Source of the DNA: Thermodesulfovibrionia bacterium
GTDB taxonomy: Bacteria; Nitrospirota; Thermodesulfovibrionia; UBA6902
Direction: 5' to 3'
Assembly (NCBI GenBank): GCA_947259735.1
Contig: CAMYNN010000009.1
Span: 17,856 to 81,855, forward strand
Length of the DNA: 64,000 bases
The stretch's first letter is position 1. Every line of letters starts with the position of its first letter. Below the pieces are notes generated by a model. It did not search any database and was not told the DNA's origin. It was given only the letters and a program-made list of their open reading frames with translations. This document shows positions 5,864-45,427 of this stretch, in pieces. The translations under genes and the position numbers were made by a program.

Positions 5864-6026
5864 AAAGAAAGATAAACAACAAATTTCAAGCACCAAATAA
5901 CAAATAAATAACAATGATCAAATTTCAAACACATGTTTCGCTCATTGGATTCTGGAATTTATTTGGAGCTTGTTATTTATAATTTGGAATTTCACACAAT
6001 AAGGGACTGAAGGTGTTTGAACATAG

Positions 6027-6848
6027 ATGCTTAAAAAGAAAAGGCAGAATAGTGAGGTAGCAATGCCTGAACGAAGAGAGTTTCTGCTTAAGGCTTGTAA
6101 AGGAATCGGAGTTGCTGCAACTGGCGGACTGGTATGGAGCGGCTTCATTGGAGAAGGCAAATCCGCGCCGTTGATGCTCAGGCCTCCGGGTGCTGTGCCG
6201 GAAAAGGATTTTATTGCTTCATGCATAAAGTGCGGAATGTGTGTTGAGGCATGCCCTTATGATACATTGGTTCTTGCTAAACCGGAAGACGATAAACCAA
6301 TCGGAACTCCTTATTTCACACCGAGAACCATCCCCTGTTACATGTGTAAAGACATACCCTGTGTCCCGGCCTGCCCGACAGGGTCACTTGATCAATCCCT
6401 GGTAAGTGAAACAAATAAAGAGGGTGAACTGATACTGAACGTCGATCTTGCAAAAATCGGGCTTGCTGTGATTGACCGTGAGACATGTATTGCATATGCC
6501 GGGATTCAATGTGACGCCTGTTACCGTGCCTGCCCTTTAATTGGCAAAGCCATAACTGTTGATTTCACGAGAAACGTACGGACAGGCAAGCATGCAATGC
6601 GTGCCCCCGTGGTGCACAGTGATGTTTGTACCGGGTGCGGTGTCTGCGAAAAGGCATGCGTTACTCAAAAGGCTTCAATTTTTGTATTGCCGAGGAACAT
6701 TGCCATGGGAGAGTCAAGCGAGCGGTATTTTAAGGGCTGGGACGAGCGCGATGTGGAACGAATAAAAGATGCCACAACTGAAGTTACGACGAAAACACCA
6801 AGGAGCGACAGGGCACCCGTTGATTATCTGAACGAGGAAGATTTGTAA
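6027..6848 (+). CDS. napG: Ferredoxin-type protein NapG (Tat signal, four [4Fe-4S] motifs)
   Basis: 273 aa. RREFLLKACKGIG Tat-like signal. Four CxxCxxCxxxCP-type cluster motifs (CIKCGMCVEACP, CYMCKDIPCVPACP, CDACYRACP, CTGCGVCEKAC). Position immediately after napA. Confidence 0.88.
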   Translation: MLKKKRQNSEVAMPERREFLLKACKGIGVAATGGLVWSGFIGEGKSAPLMLRPPGAVPEKDFIASCIKCGMCVEACPYDTLVLAKPEDDKPIGTPYFTPRTIPCYMCKDIPCVPACPTGSLDQSLVSETNKEGELILNVDLAKIGLAVIDRETCIAYAGIQCDACYRACPLIGKAITVDFTRNVRTGKHAMRAPVVHSDVCTGCGVCEKACVTQKASIFVLPRNIAMGESSERYFKGWDERDVERIKDATTEVTTKTPRSDRAPVDYLNEEDL

Positions 6849-6858
6849 TTGTAGGGGC

Positions 6859-7698
6859 ATGGCATGCCATGCCCCTACAGGACCTTATGAAATGAGAAAA
6901 TATAAATACCTCATATCAAGAAGAAGCACACAAATCGTAATCCTCTTCCTGTTCTTCTCCGGAAACGCATACGGCTGGCAGATTTTGAGGGGCAACCTGA
7001 GCTCGGCAAAGGTGTTTGGTGCAATTCCTCTGTCAGATCCCTTTGCAGTGCTGCAGAGTTTGTCTGCAGGGGCTTCTCCTGCCACAGATGCCATAATTGG
7101 AGCTCTGATTATATTCCTCATCTATGCTCTCCTCGGCGGCAGGATATTCTGCGCCTGGGTATGTCCTTTAAATATGGTCACAGACCTTGCCAATAAAATC
7201 AGAACGATGTGGAACATGAATTCGACACAGAAATCATGGGAGATGAAACGGGAAGTACGCTACTGGGTAATAGCCTTATCCTTGGTGCTATCGGCCATTC
7301 TCGGAGTTGCAGCCTTTGAATGGATAAGCCCCATAGGAGCGCTGCACAGAGGAATCATATACGGACTCGGGGCCGGATGGGCTTTTGTCATGGTCGTCTT
7401 TTTATTTGATCTGTTTGCCGTGAAAAACGGATTTTGCGGACACCTCTGCCCTCTTGGCGGTTTTTATTCCCTCATCGGCCGTTTCGGTTTTTTGCGTATC
7501 GGTTATGACAAGGATAAATGCAGTTCCTGTATGAAGTGTATTGATATCTGTCCTGAAAAACAGGTCCTGCACATGGTAGGGAAACAGAGCGGGGCCGTCC
7601 TTTCCGGAGAATGTATAAATTGCGGGAGATGCATTGAAGTATGTGACGAAGATGCAGTGAGGTTCAGCAGCATCTATCCAAAAAATATCAAATCATAA
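6859..7698 (+). CDS. napH: Membrane quinol dehydrogenase subunit NapH (polytopic, two C-terminal [4Fe-4S] motifs)
   Basis: 279 aa. Several hydrophobic helices plus CxxC motifs (CAWVCP, CGHLCP) and C-terminal CSSCMKCIDICP / CINCGRCIEVC. Gene order napG-napH. Start codon uncertain (MRKYKYL at 6892 is an alternative). Confidence 0.85.
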   Translation: MACHAPTGPYEMRKYKYLISRRSTQIVILFLFFSGNAYGWQILRGNLSSAKVFGAIPLSDPFAVLQSLSAGASPATDAIIGALIIFLIYALLGGRIFCAWVCPLNMVTDLANKIRTMWNMNSTQKSWEMKREVRYWVIALSLVLSAILGVAAFEWISPIGALHRGIIYGLGAGWAFVMVVFLFDLFAVKNGFCGHLCPLGGFYSLIGRFGFLRIGYDKDKCSSCMKCIDICPEKQVLHMVGKQSGAVLSGECINCGRCIEVCDEDAVRFSSIYPKNIKS

Positions 7699-7713
7699 AT
7701 AAAGGAGGGATTC

Positions 7714-8283
7714 ATGATGAAAGCAAAAAACACACAGTCCTTGATTCTTATCATTGCTCTTCTCATAGCCGCCGGAGCAACCTTGGTGTTTGCTGAATCA
7801 AAGCCGTACGTTTATGCCGAGACAAGGACGTACGATGAAGAAGAACTTGGCATCAGACAGGAATCACTTTATAATGAGAGGGATACCTATCCTGCTCAGG
7901 GATATAAAACAACGCTGGAGCCGGGAGAAAGCGAAAGGTTTCAAAGATCATTTGAAAACAGTCCCCCGCTGGTTCCCCATGACCTGACCGGAATGTTGCC
8001 CTTGGGCCGGGAACCTATCTGTCTGGACTGTCACATGCCTGAAGAGGCAGTCAGCATGGGAGCAACTCCTCTGCCGAAATCTCATTTTGTCGAACTCGGG
8101 ACAGGAACGGATCTAAAGGGCAAACTGGACGGTGATCGTTACAACTGCTTACAGTGCCATGTCACACAGAACAGGATTTCGCCCCCGATTGCAAATCTCT
8201 TCAAAGGAGAGTTCAGGAGCGAAGACTCACGCCACAGATCAAACCTGCTCAGCATCTTAAACGAAGGAGTAGAAGCTGATTAA
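7714..8283 (+). CDS. napB: Dihaem cytochrome c NapB (small subunit of periplasmic nitrate reductase)
   Basis: 189 aa. N-terminal signal peptide (LILIIALLIAAGATLVFA). Two CxxCH motifs (CLDCHMP, CLQCHV). RBS aaaggaggg. Confidence 0.85.
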   Translation: MMKAKNTQSLILIIALLIAAGATLVFAESKPYVYAETRTYDEEELGIRQESLYNERDTYPAQGYKTTLEPGESERFQRSFENSPPLVPHDLTGMLPLGREPICLDCHMPEEAVSMGATPLPKSHFVELGTGTDLKGKLDGDRYNCLQCHVTQNRISPPIANLFKGEFRSEDSRHRSNLLSILNEGVEAD

Positions 8284-8600: not shown

Positions 8601-8898
8601 AATGCCCGGCATTTATTATGATTCAGATATCAGAGCGCATCACAGTGCTGCCCGGCATGGATAAGGAATCACATTCTCCACAATACAAAGGAGAGAGGCC
8701 CTTTTTTTATCCTATCCCGGTTCTTTTCCTGCTCCTATGTCAAAAAAACGGCACATTTCACTCTCAACAGCAGCCGAAGTAGAGAGTTTTGAAGAGGATG
8801 AGTGCATTATTTACGGGGAGTTAGAATATTCATTGTGTTTGGCATGGCTATTGCATTTTCAGTGTTGAGATAAAGTATTTGTTATCAACGAGGAGATT

Positions 8899-10784: not shown

Positions 10785-12620
10785 TTAAATTATTCCCGTA
10801 ACCCTGATGATTTCATCAACAGTTGTTATACCCTTCAACAGTTTTTCCACGGCGCCTTCCTTAAGCGTGCGAAGACCTTCTTTTTTTGAGATCTGCTTTA
10901 TCATATCGGGAGTGGCTTTTTCTTCAATTGCTTCCCGTATCTTCTCTGAAATTTCCATGGCCTCAAAAACACCTGTTCTTCCCAGGTAGCCTGTTCCTCT
11001 GCATTGCGGACATCCTTTCCCTGAGGGAACTTCATATTTCCCGGCTGTGTCATAACTCAGACCAAGCATCCTGCAGTCATCTTCAGACAGGGGATACATC
11101 TCAGCGCAATGACTGCACACCTTTCTAATGAGTCTCTGGGCAACTACTCCCGACAGTATTGAGTTGATGAGAAAAGGCTGTATTCCGAGGTCAATCAGCC
11201 GTGTAACGGTACTCGGGGCATCATTGGTGTGCAGTGTTGACATCACGAGATGCCCCGTGAGAGCCGCCTGCATTGCATTCGTCGCAGTCTCGTAATCCCG
11301 TATTTCACCGACCATGATAACATCCGGGTCCTGCCGGAGAATTGTCCGGAGACTGCTCGCGAATGTAGTTCCCAGCTGGGGCTGTATTGATATCTGGTTG
11401 AATTCTTCATACACCATCTCAACAGGGTCTTCTATAGTAGTGAGATTTACATCAGGTGTTGAAAGCGTCTTGAGTGCAGAATAAAGAGTTGTTGTTTTCC
11501 CGCTGCCTGTCGGTCCAGTTACGAGAATAAGACCGTAAGGAGCAGAAATCAATGATCTGAAAATGTTTAATTCTCTTTGTGACATTCCAAGTTCATCAAC
11601 TTGCTGCATCAGGATAGCCGGATCAAATATCCTCATGACAATCTTTTCTCCAAAGGCAACGGGGAGAGTGGAAACACGAAGTTCTATTTCTTTTCCATCC
11701 TGGACAGTCTTGATCCTGCCATCCTGGGGTCTTCTTTTTTCAGCAATATCCATCCGTGAAAGTGTTTTGATCCGTGAAGCAAATGCGGGGAATACCGCCT
11801 TCGGCATTTTGTGAATTGTATGGAGAACACCGTCAATCCTGAAACGCACAAGGCAGTGTTCCCTCTTTGGTTCAATGTGTATGTCCGATGCCCTCTGGGA
11901 ATATGCATAGCGCAGGAGATACTCAACGGCATTGATTATGTGCTGATCGTTTGCCCCGAGTTCCTGGACCGATTTCAGCTTTACATACTGTTCCAGATTA
12001 CCGAGGTCATTCTGAGACGAGAGTTCGTCCTGGGCGGCCGTTATGGATAATTGAAAGCCGTAGAACTCGGTAATAATCTTCATTATGTCCGACCGTGACG
12101 ATACAACTATCTCTATATCATATCCCTTCGACTGTTTAATTCTGTCTATTCCTTCACGATCAAAGGGGTTTGATGTTGCAATGACCAGAGTGTTTCCGGC
12201 AACGCTGATCGGCACAAGCTCGTGCCGCAGCGCATAGGGCTTTGAAATGATTTTAGTCACCACATCAGAATCAAGCTTCAGGGGGTCTATTTTCAGATAG
12301 GGCAGTCCAAAGTGCTTCGCAATCTCCTTCACGATGATATCTTCCGTAATATTCTGACCATTCCCGTTGACCGGCAGGTGCATGGATTCAATAATGTCTA
12401 TTATTGAAATATCAGAATGACGGATCGTCCCCGATGGAACACCTGCACCCTTTGCCTCCCTTGACTTAAGGATTCTCATACGGAACATGTCTTCCTTCGA
12501 CAAAATGTCCCCGACCTGCCTTTCCGATAAAAGGCCTGCCGATAAAAGTATATTCAACACGTTTTCTTTGGTTTTCCTGCTCATAGTGACAACATTATTC
12601 TTTCTGCCTGAACAAGGCAT
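10785..12620 (-). CDS. GspE/PilB/MshE-family secretion ATPase with N-terminal T2SSE_N (MshEN-like) domain
   Basis: 611 aa. Walker [10 protein letters not shown], Asp box, His box ([14 protein letters not shown]), tetracysteine CSHC...[14 protein letters not shown], and an N-terminal GspII_E_N-like domain. Orphan: no adjacent gspF or secretin. Confidence 0.9.
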
Positions 12621-14125: not shown

Positions 14126-14941
14126 ATGCGAACCAGGACTAGCGAAGACATGTGGTACGCGAAAACTTCGACCGGCGGGGTTTTCATAAGCTATCGGCGT
14201 CAGGACAGCCAGGGCTTTGCCGGCCGTCTGGCCGACGATCTGACCGATCAGCTCGGTGACGAGCAGATCTTTCGCGACGACGAAATCCCGGAGGGCGAGG
14301 ATTTCACCGAAATTCTGGGCAGCGCGCTCGACACTTGTCGAGCACTGATTGTCGTCATAGGGCGAGACTGGTTGGATACCCGCGATGCCGCTGGTGAGCG
14401 ACGGCTGAATCAACCGGATGACTGGGTGCGACTCGAGATTGAAGCAGCTCTCGCCCGGGATGTGTGGGTTTTGCCGGTGTTGGTGAGTGGAGCAGCCATG
14501 CCCCGGCCAGATGAGCTGCCGCCGAGCCTGGTCGCACTAACGAACGTACAAGCGTTCAATCTCTCCGACCGGCGGTGGGACTACGATATCGAACGGCTCA
14601 TGGCCCTCCTGACCAACCGAATTCCGGCATTGACCGCCGCTTCATCCAAAAAATCCGCCAAATCGGTCAATGGAGAGCGGAGCAGCGAGATCGAATCAAC
14701 CCCCCTGGGCACCGTTATCGCCCGAGTTCAGGAATACCTCGCGACGGCCGCTGGAGATAACGCGAGCAAGCCACGGTGGGGATTGACACTTTTTTTGTCC
14801 GTGATCAGGCGCGCGGTCGTCTTGGGAATAGCGGCGCTGGTGGCGTACTTCGTTTTGGAAAACTACGCGCCGCCGGCGGTCCGGAATTTCGTGTATGGCT
14901 TTCTTGGTTTCGTCGCTGATCTCGTGAGATCGGTTTTTTGA
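14126..14941 (+). CDS. TIR-domain protein with C-terminal transmembrane helices (candidate NADase/defence effector); GC-rich, likely horizontally acquired
   Basis: 271 aa. TIR hallmarks VFISYRRQDSQGFAGRLADDL ... ALIVVIGRDWLDTRD ... DDWVRLEIEAAL (a W-x-x-x-E motif with a putative catalytic Glu). Two predicted C-terminal TM helices (LTLFLSVIRRAVVLGIAALVAYFVL ... FVYGFLGFVADLV). Codon usage and GC (~60%) clearly differ from the flanking genes. Flanked by ~600 and ~500 bp of AT-rich non-coding DNA. An alternative start lies at 14150. Confidence 0.75.
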   Translation: MRTRTSEDMWYAKTSTGGVFISYRRQDSQGFAGRLADDLTDQLGDEQIFRDDEIPEGEDFTEILGSALDTCRALIVVIGRDWLDTRDAAGERRLNQPDDWVRLEIEAALARDVWVLPVLVSGAAMPRPDELPPSLVALTNVQAFNLSDRRWDYDIERLMALLTNRIPALTAASSKKSAKSVNGERSSEIESTPLGTVIARVQEYLATAAGDNASKPRWGLTLFLSVIRRAVVLGIAALVAYFVLENYAPPAVRNFVYGFLGFVADLVRSVF

Positions 14942-17739: not shown

Positions 17740-17911
17740 CAAAAGATCCTAGTACGGCATAAACTCTAATCGTGAATGTTTACAATACAGCTTAGCATTT
17801 ATGGGGCAATGCCTCATTCTAATTATTATTAATGACACTTTTGTTTTAAGTGTTACAATAATTAAGCAACGTGATTGTTTACTAATAAAACGCCTTTTCA
17901 GGAGAGCCCGC

Positions 17912-18268
17912 ATGAAACGTCTAAAAGTACTGTTTCACATTAATGAAATCGAAAGATGGGACACAGCCCTCGGAAATATTATCAATCTCCTGAAGGATGT
18001 GGGAGAAGACGCGGTCGATGCGGTGGTCCTCGGGAATGGTCCTTCTATTAATGCCTATGGTAATGAGACTAAACTGTCGGTAATGAAAGGCCTCTCCGAA
18101 AGAGGTGTCAGATTTCTTGCCTGCAGAAATTCTCTGCGAAAAATGTGCTCATCAGGTGATTCCTGTATTGCAGAAGATGCCCTCTCTTCATTCATAGAGG
18201 TCGTTCCTGCCGGTATTACTGCGATAATCAGAATTCAGTCCGATGGTTATGCCTATGTCAAGCCCTAG
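17912..18268 (+). CDS. DsrE/DsrF-like family protein (DrsE_2-type sulfur-relay-like fold)
   Basis: 118 aa from the ATG at 17912 (RBS ggagag). The longer ORF from 17801 is probably an artefactual extension. MKRLKVLFHINEIERW ... VVLGNGPSINAY ... RFLACRNSL, with a conserved Cys in the ACRNS context. Confidence 0.65.
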   Translation: MKRLKVLFHINEIERWDTALGNIINLLKDVGEDAVDAVVLGNGPSINAYGNETKLSVMKGLSERGVRFLACRNSLRKMCSSGDSCIAEDALSSFIEVVPAGITAIIRIQSDGYAYVKP

Positions 18269-18277
18269 AGAATGTCT

Positions 18278-18360
18278 GGGGTCAAACCTTCAATATTCAT
18301 TTATAAAATACTTTATGAATAATAGTAATCTTGAAAATTGAATTATGAAGGTTTGACCCC
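18278..18360. terminator. Bidirectional hairpin between convergent genes (15-bp perfect stem GGGGTCAAACCTTCA / TGAAGGTTTGACCCC, AT-rich loop with a nested inverted repeat)
   Basis: Read directly. Lies between the dsrE-like stop (18268) and the VKOR-Trx stop (18376). Confidence 0.6.
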
Positions 18361-18375
18361 ATGGATTCTCTCCCG

Positions 18376-19311
18376 TCATTGGGTACTGACATAACCTGAA
18401 AGAGCTGACAACCGCTCAGGAGTGAGTACCCCCTGATATGTTTGCCCTCCAACAATCCATGTAGGGTACGAGTTAATTCTATTCTTTATGCAGACAGCGG
18501 CCTTCGGTCCTGATCGCCCCTGTGGAGAGCATTCCACGTAGGGCACTCTGTCTACTGATGCCTCGAACAGATCCTTCTGTTCCACGCAGGCCGGTCACCA
18601 ATAGGCACCGTACATAACTGCATTTTCCTTTGAGAGATGGAGAGCCAATCCCTTCAAAAAGGGATCTTCCGGGCCGGCCGAAGAATCGAAAACACCACTG
18701 TAATGTAAATGCATACCCCCGATGAGCAGCATGGTCACGACAACTGTCTCTCCCGCCCAGGTTGTAAATTTAAAGGTGCGCAATCCAGCCGGCCGCTGGG
18801 AAATTACCACCCCGAATATGACAGCCATAATTGTAAGCGAAGCGAGGCAGTAAGCACACAGAGCCTCAATCACAAAAAGAGAAATTGCATTGAGATAAAC
18901 ACTGTAGCACAGGCCCAGCAAAGAGAATGCCCAGGCCCACTTCCAGTGCTTCTCCCGATCGCGGACCCGGAACCCGATATGCCCCAACACTGCATAGGTC
19001 AGGAAACCAAGGAAAGCTGTCGGCACACCGAGGAAGGTACCCCACCGGCTTTGCTGAACGATGTCGCAGGAGCTTCCATCATCGCAGTACAAAGGTGCCT
19101 GATCCAGCAAGGATGTAATTACAAGGTACGCTGTTAACACCATCCCGACTACGGCCAATGCTGTCAGTGGCCAGTTTGGACGTTCCCGCCTCTGCGGAAC
19201 CGTATGACGCTTCTTCTTTTTCTGCGCTACCGCTTTTTCCTGAGACGCCATCTCTGTCTGATTCGAGGGCTTCTCCTGAGGAGGCTTCTGGCGTTTTCTT
19301 TTTTTACCCAA
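18376..19311 (-). CDS. Vitamin K epoxide reductase (VKOR)-thioredoxin-like fusion; candidate selenoprotein with in-frame TGA (Sec) replacing the first Cys of the Trx CxxC motif (U-P-A-C)
   Basis: The ORFs at 18595..19311 (VKOR: loop Cys pair CDDGSSC, TM CxxC = CAYC) and 18376..18585 (Trx-like tail VEQKDLFEASVDRVPYVECSP...YPTWIVGGQTYQGV) are in the SAME frame, separated only by TGA-CCG-GCC-TGC. The read-through gives ...MYGAYW-U-PAC-VEQKDLFE. This matches, as far as I recall, the GAYWCPHCQEQKELF junction of cyanobacterial VKOR-Trx proteins, with U aligned to the first Cys. A small hairpin (AACAGAAGGAUCUGUU) lies ~14 nt downstream of the UGA. Confidence 0.65.
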
Positions 19312-20324: not shown

Positions 20325-21452
20325 ATGACAACACCGGTGAAAAATGAACAACTCAAAGTCCTTGTTCTTGAACCCTATTATGGAGGTTCTCACAAATCCT
20401 TTCTGAAGGGCCTGAAAAATCTTCCCTTCACGTTTGACTTCATGACCCTGCCTGCCCGCAAGTGGAAATGGAGAATGCGCCTTGCGGCTCCTTACTTTGC
20501 ACAGAGACTGCATGAACTGAAGAAGATGTATGACTTTATTCTATGCTCTACCTTTGTTGATGTTGCTGCTTTTCGGGGTCTGGCTCCCTCCTGGGTAAAT
20601 GAGGTTCCGGTCCTGACCTATTTTCACGAAAACCAGTTCGCCTATCCCACGCAGGTACATTATGAACGCGACTTCCACTATGCACTCACAAACATGACGA
20701 CCGCCCTCGCCTCTGATTGCATTGCATTCAACTCCCAATATAATCTCGATTCTTTTCTTTCGGGAATCGAAAAATTGCACAAAAAATCACATGACCTGAA
20801 ACTGGATGACCCCGTGAATGAAATACGTGGAAAGTCAAAGGTAATTTACCCCGGCATTGATTTCTCAGATATCGATGACGCCAAAAAAGCCGGTGACACA
20901 GGCCCGCCAGTAATTTTGTGGAATCATAGATGGGAACATGATAAAAATCCCGAACTCTTTTTTAAAACACTCTTTGATCTGGACAGAGCGGGGATTGCCT
21001 TCAGTCTCGTCATCCTTGGCGAAAAATTCCAGCAACACCCGCTCGTATTTGAAGAGGCCAGAGAAAACCTCTCTCAAAGAATCCTGCACTGCGGGTATAT
21101 CAAATCACGCCGGGAATATGCGAAATGGCTTAAACGCTCTACTATAGTGGTCTCTACTTCAAACCATGAGTTTTTTGGAATGTCGGTAATTGAGGCCGTA
21201 CGGGCCGGATGCCGTCCAATTCTTCCAGCCCGGCTGTCCTACCCTGAGCTTTTCCCCCGAGAATACCTCTATAACGAGAATGAATTTGCTGCCAGACTGA
21301 AAGATGCAGTTTTAGAGGGGAAGAGGCTTACTGACGAGCAGGCACAAAGCATGACAGATATGTTTTCGTGGGACACCCTTCGGCCTGTTTATGAAAAGTG
21401 GATTTTAAACAGCAGGAAATTCAGGCAGACAATATCGAGGCAAACTGAATGA
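20325..21452 (+). CDS. DUF3524-domain glycosyltransferase (GT4-like; GTDC1/tRNA-queuosine mannosyltransferase-like family)
   Basis: 375 aa. N-terminal LKVLVLEPYYGGSHKSF characteristic of DUF3524. C-terminal GT1/GT4-like region (HEFFGMSVIEAVRAGCRPILP). Confidence 0.6.
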   Translation: MTTPVKNEQLKVLVLEPYYGGSHKSFLKGLKNLPFTFDFMTLPARKWKWRMRLAAPYFAQRLHELKKMYDFILCSTFVDVAAFRGLAPSWVNEVPVLTYFHENQFAYPTQVHYERDFHYALTNMTTALASDCIAFNSQYNLDSFLSGIEKLHKKSHDLKLDDPVNEIRGKSKVIYPGIDFSDIDDAKKAGDTGPPVILWNHRWEHDKNPELFFKTLFDLDRAGIAFSLVILGEKFQQHPLVFEEARENLSQRILHCGYIKSRREYAKWLKRSTIVVSTSNHEFFGMSVIEAVRAGCRPILPARLSYPELFPREYLYNENEFAARLKDAVLEGKRLTDEQAQSMTDMFSWDTLRPVYEKWILNSRKFRQTISRQTE

Positions 21453-27398: not shown

Positions 27399-28304
27399 TT
27401 GTATAACCTAATTAAAGTGCTTGAATATTCTTTAAAAAAGTTCCGTTATCTCAACTACCTGCTCGCTGTTTTGATAGTTTTTGCATCCCTGCTCCTGGTG
27501 AGAAACGTTGTGAGCATTTCTTTTTCAAAAAACGGAGAACCGCAGGTCGCCTCAGAAGATACCCCTTTACCATATAAGAATAAAAAAGACATTATGCACT
27601 ATTCCGGAATACTGGAAAGAAATCCTTTCGGAGAGCCGATGAGCCTCAAACCTATCGCCGGTGAGAAAAAGGAGGCAACATTTCATGGATCATTGACTGA
27701 TCTGACCTTGGTCGGAACGGTAGTCGGTCCCCGATGGCTGAGTTATGCAATATTTGAAAACAAGGCAAATTCGTCCACCGGAGGCCAGGAAGTTTTTGCA
27801 TACAGGGAAAAAATCTACGATTACGGGATGTTAACAACGATCAGCAGCTCATCTGTTGAAATAGAGCAGGACGGTCGGCTTTACAAACTCACAATTCCAT
27901 TTGAAGAAGCCGGAGAAAAGTTGACAGGGGAACCGGACAGGCGATCTTCAACTCCTCAAAACTCATTTGCAAGAAAAGTAGGTGAAAGGGAGTATGTTCT
28001 TGACGGCAGAAGAGTCCAGAAATCACTCGAAAGCCCTGAACAGATATTGACAGACGCGCGACTGCTACCGAACTTTGTGGACGGAAAGCAGGAGGGCTTC
28101 AAAGTAAGCGAAGTAATTCCTGACGGAATTTACCACACCATGGGGATCAGAAACGGAGACATCCTGTTAAGAGTAAACGGCCTTGAAATATCAAATCCTG
28201 AAGTTGCCATGCAGGCAATGACTGCCCTGAAAGGAATGAACAGGGTCGAACTGGACATAGCGAGAGAAGGCAAGAACATGTCTATGAATTACCAGATACG
28301 GTAA
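27399..28304 (+). CDS. gspC: Type II secretion system protein GspC (N-terminal TM anchor, HR/PilP-like region, C-terminal PDZ)
   Basis: 301 aa. TM helix YLNYLLAVLIVFASLLLV. C-terminal PDZ (GIRNGDILLRVNGLEISNPEVAMQAMTALKGMNRVELDIAREGK). Immediately upstream of gspD. Confidence 0.75.
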   Translation: MYNLIKVLEYSLKKFRYLNYLLAVLIVFASLLLVRNVVSISFSKNGEPQVASEDTPLPYKNKKDIMHYSGILERNPFGEPMSLKPIAGEKKEATFHGSLTDLTLVGTVVGPRWLSYAIFENKANSSTGGQEVFAYREKIYDYGMLTTISSSSVEIEQDGRLYKLTIPFEEAGEKLTGEPDRRSSTPQNSFARKVGEREYVLDGRRVQKSLESPEQILTDARLLPNFVDGKQEGFKVSEVIPDGIYHTMGIRNGDILLRVNGLEISNPEVAMQAMTALKGMNRVELDIAREGKNMSMNYQIR

Positions 28305-28349
28305 GCAAATATACCCAATTATTTGACAATTGACACCCAATAAAGAATA

Positions 28350-30893
28350 ATGGATAATCCTTTTAATACTATTCAGAACCTGAAATCCTTTAAGGACCCA
28401 TTGATGAAGATAATGAAGAAGCTTTCAGTCCTGCTATGTTCGCTTGTGGTTGCAGCCTGGACCCTCTCTTTTCCTTCATTGACCGCTGCAGATACGTCCA
28501 GAGGAACTAATTCTTCGCAGCCGCAGATAGCCTTCAATTTTGTTGACGTGGAAATCCCCACAGTCATTAAATTCATCAGTGAAATTACGAAAAAAAACTT
28601 TCTTTTTGATAACAGGATAAAGGGGAAAATAACAATAATAGCCCCGACAAAACTCTCTCTTGATGAATCGTTCAACCTCTTCACATCGGTACTCAGCCTG
28701 AAGGGGTTCACCATAATTCCTTCAGGTCCGAACACGTATAAGATTATCCCCTCATCACTCGCAAAACAGACAGGGCGAATTTCTGACGACAAATTTGTTT
28801 CCGTTAACGAGGGATACATAACGAAACTGCTCCCCATCGATAACATTAAGGCCAGCGAGGCATTGCAGTTTCTCCGCCCTGTCATTTCGAGGGACGGACA
28901 CATATCTGCTTTTGGCCCCCGCAATATGCTGCTCGTTGTTGACTCCGGTATAAATATCGACAAAGTCATGTCAATTCTCAGCCTGATTGATAAGCCGTCC
29001 ATAGCAGAAGAAGAGTCACAGATCAATGTCTACTTCCTCGAGCATGCCGATGCGGTAGACATGTCAACGGTCCTGCAGGGGATAATAAAGGATCTTCAGA
29101 CATCATACAAATCCGCCAGGAGGGCTAAACAGACACCCGCTGAAAGTGCAGTTCCCATACTGAGCGTCACACCTGACAAGGCAACCAATGCCCTTGTAAT
29201 AGTGGCCCCCTTATCGGACTACGACAACATCCTCCGGGTAATCAGAACTCTCGACAAGAAGAGGAAGCAGGTCTTTGTTGAGGCAATGATCGTTGAAGCG
29301 CAAATGGACAAATTGAAAGATCTTGGAACAAAATGGAGGGTAATGGCAACCCACAATGATGAACCAATCGCCATAGGAGGCGTTGGAAATGTCAGTTCCG
29401 GAACAATCCTGGATATCATCACCGGTCTTTCCGGTTTTTCTGTCGGCGGCATGGGGAACTTCATTGATATCCCCGTTACATCTATCGGCGGAAGCGGGGC
29501 TTCTAGTGAGACATTGACAGCTCCGGGATTTGCTGCACTCTTCAGCCTGAGCGATTTCAAAGATGCAATAAACGTTTTGTCAACTCCGCAGATACTCACC
29601 TCCGATAATGAAGAAGCAGAAATACTTGTTGGTGAAAATGTCCCCTTCATATCCCAGAGAGAGCGGGACGTTGTTACGACTAACACTGTGCTGAATTCCA
29701 TCGTGAGGACCGATGTAGGGATCAAGCTGCGGATAACTCCTCAGATTACTGAAGGGGACTACGTCAAACTCGATTTATTCCAGGAAATTTCCGCGGTTAA
29801 GAATACCTCTGAGGAAATACTCACCACCGTCGGACCTACAACCACCAAAAGGTCAACAAAGACCTCTGTGGTGGTCAAGGATGGACGGACCGTCGTCATA
29901 GGAGGACTGATGCAGGAAAGAGAAGAGGAAAGTGTTATCAAGATACCCCTTCTGGGTGACATTCCTGTCCTTGAATGGCTCTTCAAGTTCAAGAGCGTTT
30001 CAAAAACCAAGACAAACCTCCTCGTATTTCTCTCTCCCCATATTGTCAAAGAACATCCCAGACAGGAAGAAACAACGGAAAATATGCACCGGGAATTTGC
30101 GGCAAATGAAAATTCATACAGCCGCGGGGAATTGATGGTCAAATTCAGAGACTATATTTCCGTAGAGAGAGCCCTGGAAATAATTACGATGATGGATGCA
30201 GCAGTCATAAAACGCTTTGCAAGCATAGATGTCTATCACATACGACTCAGGGGCGGCCAGGATGTGGACCATGCCATTGAAATGTTTTCATCTCATCCTG
30301 ACGTTCTGTACGCCGAACCGAACTACAAAGTCAGAATCCCTGAACCTCCTGAAGAGAGAAATATGGAATATCAAGTGCCTGAGCTGAATACGAACAATAC
30401 TGAACATTCTCAGCAAGAGAATAAAGTACGTCCCCTGCCCCGTGAAACGAAAGAGTCATCACCTGTAGAACCATTCGCATATGTCAACAGTTCAGTTAAA
30501 CCGTCTTTGCCAATAAGCAAAATGAAAAAAAAAACAAGTTCAGATCATGACGATTTCAACGCAGGCAGCAGCCCTCCCACGACAGACCTGTCTCAAAGCA
30601 TAGCCCCTGCAGCGTCTCCCGGGTATTCTCGGGACTTTGAGATACAGCAGATCAACAAGCCGGCAGTAAATAAGTATTATATCCAGGTCGGTGCCTGGAA
30701 AAACATTAAGTATGCCACAGACACCCTTTCAACACTGAGGACTCAATACCCTGATGTATATCTGGCCAAAGAAGGCACCTTTCACAAGATCCGGATCCCG
30801 GGCACCATGAGCAGAAAAAAAGATGTATCAATACTGAATGATCTGAAAAATAATTTTAATCTGAAGCCTATTCTCGTAAATCAATCGTTGTAA
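28350..30893 (+). CDS. gspD: Type II secretion system secretin GspD with extra C-terminal SPOR (peptidoglycan-binding) domain
   Basis: 847 aa. N0-N3 domains and secretin core (VVIGGLMQEREEESVIKIPLLGDIPVLEWLFKFKS...NLLVFLSPHIV). C-terminal ~80 aa resemble a SPOR domain (YYIQVGAWKNIKYATDTLSTLRTQYPDVYLAKEGTFHKIRIPG). An inserted ~70-aa segment ends in HPDVLYAEPNY. Confidence 0.85.
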   Translation: MDNPFNTIQNLKSFKDPLMKIMKKLSVLLCSLVVAAWTLSFPSLTAADTSRGTNSSQPQIAFNFVDVEIPTVIKFISEITKKNFLFDNRIKGKITIIAPTKLSLDESFNLFTSVLSLKGFTIIPSGPNTYKIIPSSLAKQTGRISDDKFVSVNEGYITKLLPIDNIKASEALQFLRPVISRDGHISAFGPRNMLLVVDSGINIDKVMSILSLIDKPSIAEEESQINVYFLEHADAVDMSTVLQGIIKDLQTSYKSARRAKQTPAESAVPILSVTPDKATNALVIVAPLSDYDNILRVIRTLDKKRKQVFVEAMIVEAQMDKLKDLGTKWRVMATHNDEPIAIGGVGNVSSGTILDIITGLSGFSVGGMGNFIDIPVTSIGGSGASSETLTAPGFAALFSLSDFKDAINVLSTPQILTSDNEEAEILVGENVPFISQRERDVVTTNTVLNSIVRTDVGIKLRITPQITEGDYVKLDLFQEISAVKNTSEEILTTVGPTTTKRSTKTSVVVKDGRTVVIGGLMQEREEESVIKIPLLGDIPVLEWLFKFKSVSKTKTNLLVFLSPHIVKEHPRQEETTENMHREFAANENSYSRGELMVKFRDYISVERALEIITMMDAAVIKRFASIDVYHIRLRGGQDVDHAIEMFSSHPDVLYAEPNYKVRIPEPPEERNMEYQVPELNTNNTEHSQQENKVRPLPRETKESSPVEPFAYVNSSVKPSLPISKMKKKTSSDHDDFNAGSSPPTTDLSQSIAPAASPGYSRDFEIQQINKPAVNKYYIQVGAWKNIKYATDTLSTLRTQYPDVYLAKEGTFHKIRIPGTMSRKKDVSILNDLKNNFNLKPILVNQSL

Positions 30894-30909
30894 GGCCCTG
30901 CAGGACAGT

Positions 30910-32436
30910 ATGATGGACAGTATAGAAAATATCAAAGACGATGAGATAGAGTTCTCCCTTCTCGAAAAAATATCCCTCTCCTTTGCCAAGGGCAATGTAT
31001 TTTTGCCGCTGAGAAGAGAGGACAATGAATTGCTGGGAGCCGTGGCTGATACCCGGGGAATTTTTGCACTTCGGGATCTGGCGCGAAGCATGAACCTCAA
31101 GCCCCGTCCGCTTCAGGCAGGAGAGGCCCTCATAATAGAAACAATTAACCGCATTTACAGCCGGACAAGCAGGGTAGACGAAGCAATGGGGGTCATCCAC
31201 GGAGAAGACCTTTCCATGGTAGCTACGGAATTTGAATCACCGACCGATCTTCTTGAACTGACGGAAGAGGCCCCGATCATCCGTCTGCTGAATGCGCTGT
31301 TGATGGAAGCAGTAAAGGAAAAAGCAAGTGATATTCATATCGAACCCTATGAAAAAGGCATTGATGTCAGATTCCGGGTAGACGGGATTCTGAGCAAAGT
31401 CTTGAGTCCTCCAAAAATTATTCATGACGCCCTCATATCCAGGGTAAAGATACTTGCCGGTCTCGATATTGCGGAAAAAAGACTTCCCCAGGACGGAAGA
31501 ATACAGCTGCTTGTGGGCGGGAAAGACATCGATATCCGTGTGTCCATCATACCGACCGCACTGGGCGAAAGGGCCGTCCTGAGACTCCTTGACCGTCATT
31601 CAGGTATGCTGAGCCTTGAAATGCTCGGACTGACAGACACCCTTCTCATTTCATTAAAGAATGCCCTGTCCAGGCACAATGGAATCATACTGGTTACAGG
31701 ACCGACAGGCTCCGGTAAAACTACTTCATTGTATGCATCACTCCTGCGGCTCAACACGGAAGACAGGAATATCATCACTGTTGAAGACCCTGTTGAGTAT
31801 CAGTTGGCCGGCATAGGGCAGATGCAGGTCAATCCAAAAATCGGTCTGACATTTGCAGCGGGACTGAGATCGATACTGCGGCAGGATCCGGATATAATGA
31901 TGGTCGGTGAGATACGAGATCTGGAAACTGCGGAGATTGCAGTTCACGCTTCCCTGACAGGGCATCTGGTCCTGAGCACCCTGCATACAAACGATGCTCC
32001 CAGTGCTGCCACACGACTCATTGACATGGGTATAGAACCATTTCTTGTCTCCTCATCGCTGGCATGTGTACTGGCCCAGCGGCTTGTAAGGGTAATCTGC
32101 CCTCACTGCAAAGAATCCTATGTGCCGTCTAAACAGGAACTGAACTACCTCGAAATTGACCCTCCTCCTTCTGAACTGTACCGTGGGAAGGGATGCGAAA
32201 AGTGCCTGGACAAGGGATATCTCGGCAGGACAGGCATCTACGAACTGCTCGAAATCACTCCTGATGTAAGAACAATGATAGCGGAGAGAAAAGATGCTCA
32301 GGCAATCAAGGCAGCCGCAGTACGGTCCGCCGGATTTAATTCTCTCCAGAAAAATGCATTGGACAAGATATTAAAAGGTATTACAACCGTTGAGGAAGTC
32401 ATACGGGTAACACTAAAAGATGCAGAATCATTATAG
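30910..32436 (+). CDS. gspE: Type II secretion ATPase GspE
   Basis: 508 aa. N1 domain, Walker [24 protein letters not shown], Zn tetracysteine CPHC...CEKC. Confidence 0.92.
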   Translation: MMDSIENIKDDEIEFSLLEKISLSFAKGNVFLPLRREDNELLGAVADTRGIFALRDLARSMNLKPRPLQAGEALIIETINRIYSRTSRVDEAMGVIHGEDLSMVATEFESPTDLLELTEEAPIIRLLNALLMEAVKEKASDIHIEPYEKGIDVRFRVDGILSKVLSPPKIIHDALISRVKILAGLDIAEKRLPQDGRIQLLVGGKDIDIRVSIIPTALGERAVLRLLDRHSGMLSLEMLGLTDTLLISLKNALSRHNGIILVTGPTGSGKTTSLYASLLRLNTEDRNIITVEDPVEYQLAGIGQMQVNPKIGLTFAAGLRSILRQDPDIMMVGEIRDLETAEIAVHASLTGHLVLSTLHTNDAPSAATRLIDMGIEPFLVSSSLACVLAQRLVRVICPHCKESYVPSKQELNYLEIDPPPSELYRGKGCEKCLDKGYLGRTGIYELLEITPDVRTMIAERKDAQAIKAAAVRSAGFNSLQKNALDKILKGITTVEEVIRVTLKDAESL

Positions 32437-32598
32437 TTCATATAACGTAATGGATAGAACTTTGTTTCAATCACCAATAAATAAATAATGACCAATAATG
32501 TGATAACAATATTCATGACTTCAAAGTTTATTGATACTTCGGTCATGGGACATGGAAATTTATTCGTAATTCGTAATTCGTAATTTTCTTTTAATAGT

Positions 32599-37338: not shown

Positions 37339-38172
37339 ATGTTCAATATCTTAAAGAAGGAGGAATTGTCAGAGCAGATAACGTTATTTGAGATCTCTGC
37401 AAAAGACATCGCGAATAAGGCAAAGCCGGGTAATTTTTTTATGCTCAGGACTCATGAGCAGGGAGAAAGGGTTCCTTTAACCATTGCTGATTTTGACAGG
37501 GACAGAGGGACCATAACAGCTGTGTTTCAGAAGGTCGGCAAGTCGACCAATCATCTGGGGTCCCTCAATGAAGGTGATTTTATACCCGATGTCACCGGTC
37601 CTCTCGGTAACCACTCCCACATAGATAATTTCGGCAGAGTTGTGTGCGTGGGAGGCGGCGTGGGGATCGCGCCTGTATACCCCATAGCAAAAGCGCTCAA
37701 AGAATCAGGCAATATCGTCACATCAATCATAGGTGCCCGTTCAAAATCAATTCTCTTTTGGGAAGAAAAGATGCGGAACGTATCTGACGAACTTATTATT
37801 ACCACCGATGACGGTTCCTACGGCACCAAGGCAACTGTAACCGCTCCCCTGGAAGATATTCTGAGCACCGAACAGGTCGACCTGGTCGTTGCCATCGGCC
37901 CTGCAGTCATGATGAAGTTCGTCTGCAAGACGACGGAAAAGTACAGAGTAAAAACGGTAGTCAGCCTCAATTCAATCATGATTGACGGGACGGGAATGTG
38001 CGGCGGCTGCAGGGTTGAAGTTGGAGGGGAGACAAAGTATACCTGTGTCGACGGCCCCGAATTTAATGGCCACGACGTGAACTTTGATCTGCTTATGAAC
38101 AGGCTGAAGGCGTATATTCCCCAGGAAAGTATAGCTTTGAACCGGGGAGGATCAACAGTGGAGGTCCAATAG
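37339..38172 (+). CDS. nfnA: NADH-dependent reduced ferredoxin:NADP+ oxidoreductase subunit A (NfnA / SudB; PyrK-like FAD + [2Fe-2S])
   Basis: 277 aa. FAD/NAD-binding fold (VCVGGGVGIAPVYPIAKAL). C-terminal Cys cluster (GTGMCGGCRVEVGGETKYTCVDGPEF). Followed by the gltD-like partner. Confidence 0.8.
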   Translation: MFNILKKEELSEQITLFEISAKDIANKAKPGNFFMLRTHEQGERVPLTIADFDRDRGTITAVFQKVGKSTNHLGSLNEGDFIPDVTGPLGNHSHIDNFGRVVCVGGGVGIAPVYPIAKALKESGNIVTSIIGARSKSILFWEEKMRNVSDELIITTDDGSYGTKATVTAPLEDILSTEQVDLVVAIGPAVMMKFVCKTTEKYRVKTVVSLNSIMIDGTGMCGGCRVEVGGETKYTCVDGPEFNGHDVNFDLLMNRLKAYIPQESIALNRGGSTVEVQ

Positions 38173-38174
38173 AT

Positions 38175-39605: not shown

Positions 39606-39611
39606 ATGTAT

Positions 39612-39638: not shown

Positions 39639-39654
39639 GAAGGGAGGGAAAACA

Positions 39655-42943: not shown

Positions 42944-45427
42944 ATGATAAAACTTACAATTAATGGCAAAAAGGTCAGGACTGAAAAAGGCAGTACCATC
43001 CTTGAAACCGCAATGAGCAACGGCATAAAAATACCCAATCTCTGCTATGATGGCAGAGTGGAGCCCCACGGGGGCTGCAGGTTGTGTATTGTGGAGATCG
43101 AGGGGTGGAGGAAACCCGAGGCATCATGTGCGACATTTGCAGCTGAAGGGATGACCGTGTGGACAAATACCCCTAAGGTGACAAAGATACGCCAGTCCGT
43201 ACTTGAGTTCATGTTAGTCCATCACCCCCTTGACTGTCCAGTTTGCGACAAAGCTGGTGAATGTGATGTCCAGGATCTAGCCCATCAGTATGGCAGCCCA
43301 CGATCACGTTTTATGAGGGAGAGGAAACACGCACTGCCTGATACCAAAGGCCCCCTCGTAGAATTAAATGCAAGCAGGTGTATCCTCTGCGGCAAATGCG
43401 TCCGTATCTGTGAAGAACATCAGGGCCGGGGAGCACTGGGGTTTATCGGGAGAGGCTTTCCCACTGTTGTTCAGCCTGCATTTGGTGAAGTTCTTGAATG
43501 TGATTACTGCGGACAATGCATTGATGCATGTCCTACAGGTGCCCTCATGAACAAATCCCATAAATTCGAGGCGCGGTCATGGTCCCTCGATGAGAAGGAT
43601 ACCATATGCCCCTTCTGCAGCTGCGGCTGTACTCTCACCCTTGGAATGATGGAAGGAAAGATACTGAGATCGAGAGGAAGGAAAGGCAGGGGAGTAAACG
43701 AGGGCAATCTATGTGGCAGAGGACGGTTTGGCGTTGATTATGTCTACAGCGAGAACCGTCTCAAGTCACCTGTAATTAATAAAGGTGGAGAGCTTGTCCC
43801 GGTCTCATGGGATGAGGCCCTTAATTATATCAGCGACAGACTCAAAAATATAATCAATGCCCACGGCCCGTCATCCATAGGCGCAATAGGGTCGCCCAGA
43901 TGTACAAATGAGGAGAATTATATTTTTCAGAAATTCATGAAGGAGACAATAGGTTCGAACAACATAGATTCCTCCGCTTCCTTCGGCTACGGCATTGCAG
44001 AGAGGGCCTGGAACAAGGCCTTCGGTCTCAAAGGTCACAGGATAGACCTGAAATCTCCTCTGGGTAAGGATGTAATCCTCGTCATAGAGTCTGACCTCAG
44101 CGTAACTCATCCTGTTTTCGGACTCAACATCCTTCAGGCACAGAAGGAGGGATCAAAGCTCATCGTTGCTGACAGCAGGGAGACAAAGTTGACAAGGCAC
44201 AGCACAGAATCTCCAAAATTAAAACAGGGGACAGGGGTTGCGTTCCTGAACGGAATAATGAAGGTCCTGCTGGACAGGGGTCTTTATGAGACGGAACATG
44301 TCTCAAATGTAAAAGGTTTTTCAGCACTTGAGGAAACGTTAAAAGAGTATTCCCAGGATCGAGTCTACGCGATTACAGGGGTTCCCGGGGATGAGCTTAT
44401 TGCCATTGCAGAGACTTTGGTGAATGCCAAAACCAGAATGCTCACTCTTTCCATCGGGATTTCTGAAAATACAAAGGGACTGGATACTATGTTGGCCGCA
44501 GCAAATTTAATTCACCTTCTGGGTGAGAGTCCCGACGCCCTTCAGGTGCCTGCAGAATACTCCAATACCTTTGGCCTTTATCAAATGGGTGTGCGCCCCG
44601 ATGCCGGTCCGGCTTATCAACCCTTCGGGGGTACCGGTAAAGATGTGAGGGAAATGCTCTATGAGCCTTACTCTCTCAAGGCGCTTTATATAATGGGAGC
44701 AGACCCTGTTGTCACCTTCCCCAACAACTCAGATATTATCACCACATTGAAATCACTCTACCTGCTCATCGTTCAGGATATCGCTTTGACGGAGACAGCA
44801 AAATTTGCTCACGTTATACTCCCTGCATCCAGCTGGTCGGAAAAAGACGGCACCTATACCAATACCGAAGGAATTACCCAGAAGATCCACAAGGTCATTG
44901 ATCCTGCAGGCCAGTCGCTTCCTGATTGGCAGATCCTTAAAAAACTAGCAGCGACTATGGGAAAGGACATCGATATAAAAGAGAGAAAAGACATAGTACA
45001 GGAGATAAACTCATTGCTTGATGAACAAAGCGAATTGCCGCCTCTCACCCGCGCATTTAACCCGGTTCATTATACCCCGGGCGAAAAAACGGATAAAGAG
45101 TATCCATTGAACATGGTCGCAAGGGATGTACTGCAGCACGCCGGCAGCATGTCAACGAGGTCAAAATCGCTGAACCTGGTCTCATCTGAGGCGCTCCTTG
45201 AGATAAACTGGAAAGATGCGAAAAGGTACGGCATTTCAGATAACGGTCATGTAAAAGTGACTTCGAGACGGGGTACGGTATTTCTCAAGGCAGCCGTCTC
45301 CGATGACGTTCCTGATGGAAGTGTCTATGTACCGACACACTTTCCGCACAGCGGAGTAAGTACCCTTATGAGTCCATCGGGAAATGGGGGAATTTCTACT
45401 GATGCGGTCAGGATTGAAACAGCATAA
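42944..45427 (+). CDS. fdhA: NAD-dependent formate dehydrogenase catalytic subunit FdhA/FdsA-like (2Fe-2S + 4Fe-4S + Mo/W-bisPGD), cysteine-type
   Basis: 827 aa. N-terminal 2Fe-2S (CYDGRVEPHGGCRLC). His/Cys cluster (HHPLDCPVCDKAGEC). 4Fe-4S CILCGKC / CDYCGQCIDACP. MopB start ICPFCSCGC. Mo-ligand position reads SPRC (Cys, not TGA). Clustered with NuoE/NuoF-like subunits. Confidence 0.88.
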   Translation: MIKLTINGKKVRTEKGSTILETAMSNGIKIPNLCYDGRVEPHGGCRLCIVEIEGWRKPEASCATFAAEGMTVWTNTPKVTKIRQSVLEFMLVHHPLDCPVCDKAGECDVQDLAHQYGSPRSRFMRERKHALPDTKGPLVELNASRCILCGKCVRICEEHQGRGALGFIGRGFPTVVQPAFGEVLECDYCGQCIDACPTGALMNKSHKFEARSWSLDEKDTICPFCSCGCTLTLGMMEGKILRSRGRKGRGVNEGNLCGRGRFGVDYVYSENRLKSPVINKGGELVPVSWDEALNYISDRLKNIINAHGPSSIGAIGSPRCTNEENYIFQKFMKETIGSNNIDSSASFGYGIAERAWNKAFGLKGHRIDLKSPLGKDVILVIESDLSVTHPVFGLNILQAQKEGSKLIVADSRETKLTRHSTESPKLKQGTGVAFLNGIMKVLLDRGLYETEHVSNVKGFSALEETLKEYSQDRVYAITGVPGDELIAIAETLVNAKTRMLTLSIGISENTKGLDTMLAAANLIHLLGESPDALQVPAEYSNTFGLYQMGVRPDAGPAYQPFGGTGKDVREMLYEPYSLKALYIMGADPVVTFPNNSDIITTLKSLYLLIVQDIALTETAKFAHVILPASSWSEKDGTYTNTEGITQKIHKVIDPAGQSLPDWQILKKLAATMGKDIDIKERKDIVQEINSLLDEQSELPPLTRAFNPVHYTPGEKTDKEYPLNMVARDVLQHAGSMSTRSKSLNLVSSEALLEINWKDAKRYGISDNGHVKVTSRRGTVFLKAAVSDDVPDGSVYVPTHFPHSGVSTLMSPSGNGGISTDAVRIETA

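Follow-up and report, generated by a model that had tools for sequence, protein, structure and literature searches.

An in-frame UGA as a candidate selenocysteine codon in a VKOR-thioredoxin-like fusion gene of Thermodesulfovibrionia and other bacteria

Results

An in-frame TGA joins a VKOR core to a thioredoxin-like domain

This report concerns a gene on the minus strand of a 64-kb stretch of DNA from a Thermodesulfovibrionia bacterium (the window, meaning the whole stretch analysed, to which all positions without a locus number refer), in which a vitamin K epoxide reductase (VKOR) domain and a thioredoxin (Trx)-like domain are joined across an in-frame TGA that we read as a probable selenocysteine (Sec) codon. 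Two open reading frames (ORFs) lie there in the same frame with TGA CCG GCC TGC between them, as a first-pass annotation of the window had described. The upstream ORF (19311..18595) begins with TTG and encodes 238 residues, the last of which are ...KENAVMYGAYW, and it ends at the TGA at 18597..18595. Past this TGA the frame continues unbroken for 72 codons (CCG GCC TGC GTG GAA CAG AAG..., or P-A-C-V-E-Q-K-D-L-F...). The features of the complete read-through gene are collected in Table 1.

The VKOR part scored 87.5 bits against its Pfam model (cutoff 27.5). When the TGA was read as Cys, the joined protein aligned over residues 36-308 with the Synechococcus VKOR-Trx structures in the PDB (3kp9/4nv2/4nv6, E about 5e-50), and residues 217-308 matched the isolated Trx-like domain structure 3kp8 with E=1.3e-29; a Pfam search of the joined protein gave no match of this domain to any Trx model. 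In the alignment with 3kp9/4nv2 the TGA falls opposite Cys209, the first Cys of the C-P-H-C motif, and the junction that the first-pass annotation had given as GAYW-CPHC is indeed present in these structures (GAYW-CPHC-QDQKELF). The VKOR cysteines said to be retained were all found: C76, C82, C152 and C155, together with S88, do not vary across 25 relatives. The second Cys of the Trx motif, Cys242, is unvarying in 70 of 70 sequences, and the Trx-like domain has another conserved pair of cysteines, C261/C274, as well as the cis-Pro motif YPTW. Judged by sequence, with every defining feature present and U in place of the first Trx-motif Cys, the protein belongs to the VKOR family (PF07884), and within it to the VKOR-Trx fusion subtype.

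The start of the gene is ambiguous within 19251-19311. The database protein P0001 (218 residues) begins at the ATG of codon 21, which is where NCBI-style gene callers place the start, ending the gene at the UGA, while an N-terminus MGKKxKR common to the relatives agrees with the TTG start at 19311. As had been anticipated, public records give a truncated product (238 residues), named 'vitamin K epoxide reductase family protein', and some add a small orphan ORF of 64 residues (CP070788.1).

Table 1. Features of the read-through VKOR-Trx gene and its mRNA in the window.
Feature	Position	Strand	Details
Complete read-through gene, VKOR-thioredoxin-like fusion	18376..19311	minus	311 codons: 238 residues + predicted Sec239 + 72 residues
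VKOR domain, four-helix membrane core, residues 47-169	18805..19173	minus	Pfam PF07884, E=1.1e-24, profile positions 1-133/134
Loop Cys pair C76...C82 (LYCDDGSSCD), equivalent to Synechococcus Cys50/Cys56	19066..19086	minus	Alignment
VKOR active-site CxxC, C152-A-Y-C155, equivalent to Synechococcus Cys130/Cys133, beside the quinone	18847..18858	minus	Alignment
Trx-like domain, residues 217-308, periplasmic by homology	18388..18663	minus	Match to 3kp8
In-frame UGA, putative Sec codon, residue 239, opposite Synechococcus Cys209	18595..18597	minus	Alignment
Redox motif U-P-A-C, Sec239...Cys242 (Sec predicted)	18586..18597	minus	
Core SECIS-like hairpin	18565..18582	minus	GAACAGA (18582..18576), loop AGGA (18575..18572), UCUGUUC (18571..18565)
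Extended lower stem	18559..18588	minus	Cys242 UGC paired with Ala251 GCA, and one further U-A pair; present chiefly in the Nitrospirota subclade
True gene stop, likewise TGA, with no hairpin behind it	18378..18376	minus	

TGA interchanges only with Cys codons among the relatives

A search of about 5.8 billion proteins gave 760 matches at E<=1e-10, and the best 120 of these (52-100% identity) were inspected. Among these 120, 114 end in G-[A/T]-x-W, one residue short of the UGA codon, and the remaining six are full-length proteins with Cys at the UGA site (CPAC, CPHC or CGVC). We then scanned genomes, taking one per species, and obtained 73 loci, 69 of which could be scored at the DNA level (the other four had no match to the motif pattern). 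The codon at the site was TGA in 30 of the scored loci and TGC or TGT in 39; TAA and TAG did not occur, and neither did any other sense codon, the finding that the first-pass annotation had named as refuting a Sec codon. Interchange of Cys codons with UGA alone, in both directions, is a classic signature of selenocysteine, and the proposed Sec interpretation is supported by this pattern.

The TGA set, which comprises 31 sequences when the window is added to the 30 loci, extends over several phyla. Carriers belong to the Thermodesulfovibrionia and other Nitrospirota, the Desulfuromonadales, other Desulfobacterota, SAR324-like bacteria and one member of the Methylomirabilia, and they include the isolates Pelovirga terrestris and Malonomonas rubra as well as complete chromosomes; carriers of the Cys form are mostly Nitrospira and Alpha- and Gammaproteobacteria. 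At all TGA loci the frame past the TGA is open and free of indels for about 72 codons, and the domain encoded there keeps P-x-C...E-Q-K-x-L-F...P-Y-V-E-C...Y-P-T-W. Within the TGA group the ratio of nonsynonymous to synonymous differences per site (pN/pS) was 0.41 for the 66 codons past the TGA and 0.35 for the 66 codons before it, compared with 1.1 for the +1 frame of the downstream DNA as a control, while synonymous divergence in the flanks was about 0.69, near saturation. The purifying selection past the TGA, set against the +1-frame control, indicates that the downstream segment is translated in this frame.

A SECIS-like hairpin is conserved directly past the UGA in the TGA forms

The first-pass annotation had noted a small hairpin past the UGA and proposed it as a bacterial selenocysteine insertion sequence (bSECIS). 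The hairpin is real and slightly longer than was described: it has a 7-bp stem, begins 12 nucleotides past the UGA, occupies positions +15 to +33, counted from the UGA's U, and overlaps codons E244-F249. Published bSECIS criteria comprise an apical loop of 3-9 nucleotides, an upper stem of 4-16 bp, a G in the first two loop positions, a UGA-to-loop distance of 16-37 nucleotides and a minimum free energy (MFE) of at most -7.5 kcal/mol (PMC13188914). The hairpin agrees with all of them, with a loop of four nucleotides (A-G-[G/U]-N), a stem of 7 bp, a UGA-to-loop distance of 19 nucleotides and an MFE of -15.4 kcal/mol for the window sequence. RNAalifold returned the same 7-bp hairpin over 30 TGA sequences, with a consensus energy of -8.5 kcal/mol.

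Conservation of the hairpin is specific to the TGA forms. All seven pairs form in 29 of the 31 TGA forms as against one of 39 distant Cys forms. Synonymous variation within the TGA group disappears exactly over codons +5 to +12 (entropy about 0), where the 39 distant Cys forms vary freely, and the proportion of synonymous differences (pS) is 0.30 at codons +1 to +13 versus 0.69 at +14 to +30. The effect is visible at single codons of the stem: Lys +7 is AAG in 29 of 29 sequences, Leu +9 is CTG in 30 of 30 and Phe +10 is TTC in 31 of 31, while Leu +17 is written with four codons. At codon +8 the third base is U in 30 of 31 TGA forms even though the residue differs (D/F/A/V/S), the exception (locus L072) having a hairpin of its own, and Ala +12 (Ala251), in the extended stem, is GCA in 19 of 22 TGA-group sequences versus GCC or GCG in the Cys group. 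The mean local MFE is -12.3 kcal/mol in the TGA group and -7.2 kcal/mol in the Cys group, despite the lower GC content of the former. From its sequence and conservation the hairpin is predicted to be of the SECIS type and to recruit SelB.

The tree suggests reversions to Cys and one independent origin of the TGA

In a neighbour-joining tree of the core protein, built without bootstraps, all TGA forms but one make up a single clade with a Nitrospirota and a Desulfuromonadales subclade. Nested on separate branches within the Desulfuromonadales subclade are three full-length Cys forms, P0005, P0002 and P0004 (loci L074, L075 and L076), which keep the exact hairpin sequence with seven of seven pairs despite their Cys codon (TGC in L074 and L076). 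This is the pattern expected of recent single-base reversions from TGA to TGC or TGT that have left a fossil SECIS behind. The remaining TGA form, the VKOR-Trx of L072 (3610 onward) from the Methylomirabilia, carries its TGA at the same codon on a distant branch adjoining a Cys form. Its hairpin differs (AGGCCCG-GUU-CGGGUCU), with a G-U-U loop that begins 29 nucleotides past the UGA, which suggests an independent conversion from Cys to Sec.

Sec machinery, other candidate Sec codons and the genetic code

Several results weigh against a Sec codon and its SECIS. The hairpin shows no covariation (none of its seven pairs in the 30-sequence alignment). Compensatory substitutions are absent because the stem is invariant in sequence, and with an invariant stem the structural case rests on the conservation of synonymous sites and the contrast between Sec and Cys forms. 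The fold z-score for the single sequence is only -2.1. The peptide E-Q-K-x-L-F itself biases its codons toward self-complementarity, so that 24 of the 39 distant Cys forms pair five or six of the seven positions; such part-paired Cys forms may represent a pre-adaptation that eased the transition from Cys to Sec. Neither selA, selB or selD nor a tRNA(Sec) gene was found in the 64-kb window or in 581 kb of related DNA: tblastn with E. coli SelA, SelB and SelD gave no match in either, Pfam annotation of 48 window ORFs gave no SelA, SelB or SelD, and ARAGORN detected no tRNA in the window and, across the 30 TGA-form loci, a single tRNA-Ser. A scan of the window for internal and for N- and C-terminal Sec types gave no convincing second selenoprotein gene. 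A gathering-threshold scan of the window against Rfam gave no matches at all, so that the hairpin corresponds to no Rfam family. On the other side, selABCD is complete in Thermodesulfovibrio and delta-proteobacterial genomes (PMC5389517), and MccSep, a periplasmic selenoprotein verified by mass spectrometry, occurs mainly in Desulfobacterota and Thermodesulfovibrionia (PMC13510729).

One other TGA was considered as a Sec codon, at 8866 (8737-8866, plus strand; HFQC-U-DKVF), and was rejected as a chance occurrence because the 419-residue gene downstream possesses an ATG of its own at 8899 and no family matched either part. The FdhA-like molybdoenzyme at 42944..45427 is an unbroken ORF lacking the C/U-H-x-P motif of formate dehydrogenases and is therefore uninformative on Sec use. 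Reassignment of TGA in the genetic code was excluded: 14 of the 44 Pfam-supported genes in the window end in TGA, as does the VKOR-Trx gene itself.

Alternative readings of the UGA

The alternative that survives best accepts the recoding and changes only the inserted amino acid. Here the UGA would be recoded through the SECIS and a SelB-type factor, and a selC* tRNA(Cys), which is tRNA(Sec)-like with a UCA anticodon, would insert Cys, either always or under selenium limitation; the product would be an ordinary CxxC VKOR-Trx made by Sec-type recoding. Genes for such tRNAs have been reported in Thermodesulfovibrio, in Nitrospirae-like contigs and in delta-proteobacteria, and some of these carry an opal anticodon and come with a SelB* or CysRS* dedicated to them, with UGA read as Cys in a reporter (Mukai et al., PMC5389517). 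Cys is also functional at this site, to judge from the 39 Cys homologues and the three apparent recent reversions. We nevertheless consider this quite unlikely. Every selC*-containing genome also had the full Sec apparatus (PMC5389517), which points to an addition to Sec rather than its replacement; a tRNA scan of the window showed no selC* gene; and if Cys were the sole product, TGC would be the simpler codon and the costly constraint of the hairpin would not be expected to persist across phyla.

A genuine stop at the UGA would leave a stand-alone, five-helix VKOR of 238 residues working with a separate DsbA-like partner, the Trx-like remnant being in decay or rarely translated. VKORs that stand alone, having a fifth helix but lacking a Trx domain, do exist, for example in actinobacteria (PMC4555120), and public annotation treats the VKOR ORF as ending at the UGA. 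Since termination competes with Sec insertion at all bacterial Sec codons, some truncated product is likely here as well. The conservation past the UGA makes a genuine stop very improbable as the whole explanation: the 66 downstream codons are selected like the upstream ones even though synonymous sites are near saturation, none of the 31 TGA genomes has an indel or a break in the frame, the stop is TGA every time, and Cys242, the C261/C274 pair and YPTW are invariant.

Hardly credible is a split gene, in which the Trx-like part would be translated from an internal start (GTG, codon +4) and would act as a non-covalent partner of the truncated VKOR. The ORF listing does contain a GTG-initiated ORF of 69 residues at 18376..18585, and the 64-residue ORF is called in CP070788.1. 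A start-type codon, however, occurs at +4 in only 14 of the 31 TGA genomes and at none of +1 to +3 or +5 to +8. A product begun at +4 would lack both UxxC residues, Cys242 lying upstream, as well as a signal peptide for the periplasm, and the conservation of the P-x-C codons between the UGA and +4 would be inexplicable if they were untranslated.

The chance of a sequencing or assembly error or of a strain-specific nonsense mutation is negligible: although the window comes from a metagenome-assembled genome, in which a single-base change from TGC or TGT to TGA could arise, the point error and pseudogene against which the first-pass annotation had advised a check are excluded by purifying selection downstream and by recurrence of the identical TGA across phyla, in 30 independent species-level genomes, isolates and complete chromosomes among them, and in more than 110 metagenomic protein clusters.

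Gene neighbourhood and other features of the window

Synteny of the 3-kb flanks revealed no conserved neighbour among the TGA-form loci, and the TGA forms are monocistronic. Close Cys-form relatives lie in a cluster of TlpA-like redoxin, CcdA/DsbD_TM, DsbB, DsbA and VKOR-Trx genes (L074, 3549-6870; L076, 40-2621), which supports a periplasmic thiol-disulfide role. In L074 this cluster adjoins a MerR regulator and a heavy-metal P-type ATPase.

Genes for sulfur or selenium handling are found loosely near TGA forms: a DsrE-like gene in the window (17801-18268, plus strand) and in L081 (7010-7534), a rhodanese gene in L080 (5155-5805) and, two genes upstream of the TGA form in the Nitrospiraceae chromosome CP070788.1 (L079, 6595-7911), a gene for SBP56, the 56-kDa selenium-binding protein family. 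None of the three is a conserved operon partner, and the association was seen by inspection. The 107-nucleotide gap between the convergent VKOR-Trx and DsrE-like genes is filled by a long imperfect inverted repeat (18267-18371), unique in the window, whose 41-nucleotide arms are 80% complementary and separated by 23 nucleotides. Its core of 14 bp (GGGGTCAAACCTTC; 18278-18291 and 18347-18360) is perfectly paired, and the repeat probably forms a terminator-like hairpin that works in both directions.

Elsewhere on the plus strand, 3089-8283 holds a periplasmic nitrate-reductase-like cluster composed of a Tat-signal molybdopterin enzyme (924 residues), two Fe-S proteins (NapG/NapH-like) and NapB, and 37339-45427 encodes an NfnAB-like pair and, behind it, a response-regulator/NuoE-like fusion, then a NuoF-like protein and a NuoG/FdhA-like molybdoenzyme. 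A TIR-domain protein at 14126-14941 (plus strand; PF13676, E=7e-14) could be a defence or signalling gene. The bacterial glycosyltransferase at 20325-21452 (plus strand) matches QTMAN_N (PF12038, E=6e-58), the N-terminal domain of eukaryotic tRNA-queuosine alpha-mannosyltransferase, ahead of a GT1 domain. Three separate gene sets resemble type II secretion or type IV pilus systems (10785-12620, 27399-33774 and 47706-58720) and together encode three T2SSE ATPases, two secretins, two T2SSF proteins and pseudopilins.

Discussion

The restriction of the site to TGA or Cys codons, the selection on the sequence past the TGA and the hairpin conserved in the TGA forms lead us to conclude that 19311..18376 is very probably (about 0.88, on our estimate from sequence comparison) a single gene encoding a Sec-containing VKOR-Trx, with the UGA in the Trx-like redox motif. 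We infer that Sec is actually inserted at residue 239. The product would be a 311-residue membrane protein with a VKOR quinone-reductase core, a fifth transmembrane helix and a periplasmic Trx-like domain carrying Sec239-Pro-Ala-Cys242. In the proposed mechanism, the UGA at 18597..18595 would be recoded to Sec by SelB and Sec-tRNA(Sec), recruited by the hairpin inside the ORF (18582..18565).

The Synechococcus fusion is a bacterial VKOR homologue that stands in for DsbB and has its DsbA-like partner fused to it, and electrons pass in it from substrate thiols to Cys209/Cys212, then to Cys50/Cys56, to Cys130/Cys133 and to quinone (PMC3800646). By homology with this enzyme the protein described here would be a self-contained disulfide relay, in which electrons would flow from periplasmic substrate thiols to Sec239/Cys242, Cys76/Cys82, Cys152/Cys155 and finally a quinone, presumably menaquinone, as the hosts are anaerobes. 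Quinone reduction would by analogy be coupled to disulfide formation, and we propose such a quinone-linked disulfide role because of the homology and of the dsbA, dsbB and ccdA neighbours of close Cys-form relatives. Sec would take the exposed N-terminal attacking position and form a transient mixed bond with the substrate and with a loop cysteine.

Replacement of Cys by Sec quickens exchange of the thiol/disulfide type, and the reduction potential of a selenenylsulfide lies below that of a disulfide; examples of this chemistry are said to be provided by studies of seleno-glutaredoxin and by Hondal, Marino and Gladyshev in 2013. Which way electrons flow, which quinone takes part and what benefit Sec brings are all argued here by analogy. 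That benefit may be faster exchange, a lower-potential selenenylsulfide suited to a low-potential quinone, or both. The lower potential would favour electron transfer to low-potential menaquinone, which would fit the confinement of the Sec form to anaerobes.

A tentative and, on balance, doubtful proposal goes further and holds that the switch from Cys to Sec was non-neutral, adapting the VKOR relay to low-potential quinones and adding a switch at the UGA. In a first form, Sec may make oxidative protein folding feasible with menaquinone, the selenenylsulfide lowering the potential of the motif and speeding exchange. In a second form the direction may be reversed, with menaquinol driving a periplasmic Sec-based reductase that acts on disulfides or on sulfur or selenium species such as polysulfide. 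The loose linkage to DsrE-like, rhodanese and SBP56 genes would agree with the second form, as would a taxonomic range common with that of the polysulfide-reducing selenoprotein MccSep. Under the same proposal, through termination versus read-through at the UGA, the cell could toggle, depending on its supply of selenium, between a free 238-residue VKOR and the fused enzyme.

Like the Synechococcus VKOR-Trx (3KP9, 4NV2/4NV5/4NV6), the protein combines a VKOR core that bears a loop Cys pair as well as a CxxC, a fifth helix and, at its C-terminus, a domain that is Trx-like. The Trx-like domains have in common an xPxC redox motif, another pair of cysteines and YPTW, and electrons presumably pass along the same relay in both proteins. 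Unlike the C-P-H-C of Synechococcus, the motif here is U-P-A-C, with its first residue encoded by UGA and an mRNA hairpin within the codons that follow. The hosts differ as well, being anaerobes (Thermodesulfovibrionia, Desulfuromonadales and others) for which a menaquinone-type acceptor is likely, as opposed to oxygenic cyanobacteria.

Among bacterial selenoproteins, the commonest type has Sec in place of the first Cys of a Trx-fold CxxC. As in the UxxC Trx-fold selenoproteins (DsbA-like form 1, DsbG-like, thiol:disulfide interchange protein, Trx and Grx), Sec would replace the N-terminal Cys of the motif, Cys homologues exist and a SECIS-like element lies directly downstream inside the ORF. 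Those families occur mostly in anaerobes and delta-proteobacteria (PMC13188914, Table 1). The catalogued UxxC families are soluble and single-domain, whereas here the Sec domain would be covalently fused to the membrane enzyme that reoxidises it.

In its proposed function the protein also resembles E. coli DsbB-DsbA, in which a four-helix membrane protein, linked to quinone and holding two Cys pairs, reoxidises a Trx-fold CxxC oxidant of periplasmic substrates (PMC4555120). It differs from that system in that its core belongs to the VKOR family and not to DsbB, its partner is fused and not free, and Sec is predicted to be present. We know of no Sec-containing DsbB. The hairpin, for which SelB binding is predicted, has no sequence similarity to the E. 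coli fdhF-type SECIS and consists of a short perfect 7-bp stem with an A-G-[G/U]-N tetraloop.

The suggestion in the first-pass annotation that a VKOR-family selenoprotein may be new is in line with the literature and databases that we searched. No VKOR or PF07884 entry is among the 119 prokaryotic selenoprotein families and subfamilies inventoried in May 2026 (PMC13188914, Table 1); a VKOR selenoprotein is not mentioned in deep-Sep, in the BSepDB main text or in the 2022 review; NCBIfam release 20 has no selenoprotein model for it and gives only a generic, sub-threshold VKOR match; and a 2015 paper on VKOR phylogeny does not mention selenocysteine (PMC4555120). Full-text searches linking VKOR with selenoprotein, selenocysteine or SECIS found only ferroptosis papers and other unrelated work, with nothing on a prokaryotic Sec-containing VKOR. 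The Sec VKOR-Trx thus appears to be an undescribed selenoprotein family of the familiar UxxC Trx-fold type.

Such a family would add a widespread member to the catalogue of 119, and it would mean that at least 30 species-level genomes and more than 110 metagenomic protein clusters misannotate the gene, which is recorded there as a truncated VKOR together with an orphan ORF. It would also offer a natural series on the rise and decay of a Sec codon and its SECIS: a large Sec clade, three apparent Cys reversions that keep the SECIS, one likely independent Sec origin with a different hairpin, and Cys outgroups that half-form the hairpin. As far as we could find, this would be the first quinone-linked, disulfide-generating relay known to contain selenium. 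The Sec form is confined to anaerobic lineages, while the mostly aerobic relatives (Nitrospira, Alpha- and Gammaproteobacteria) keep Cys, and with Malonomonas rubra and Pelovirga terrestris as cultured carriers the enzyme would provide a tractable handle on how periplasmic disulfides are made or managed without oxygen.

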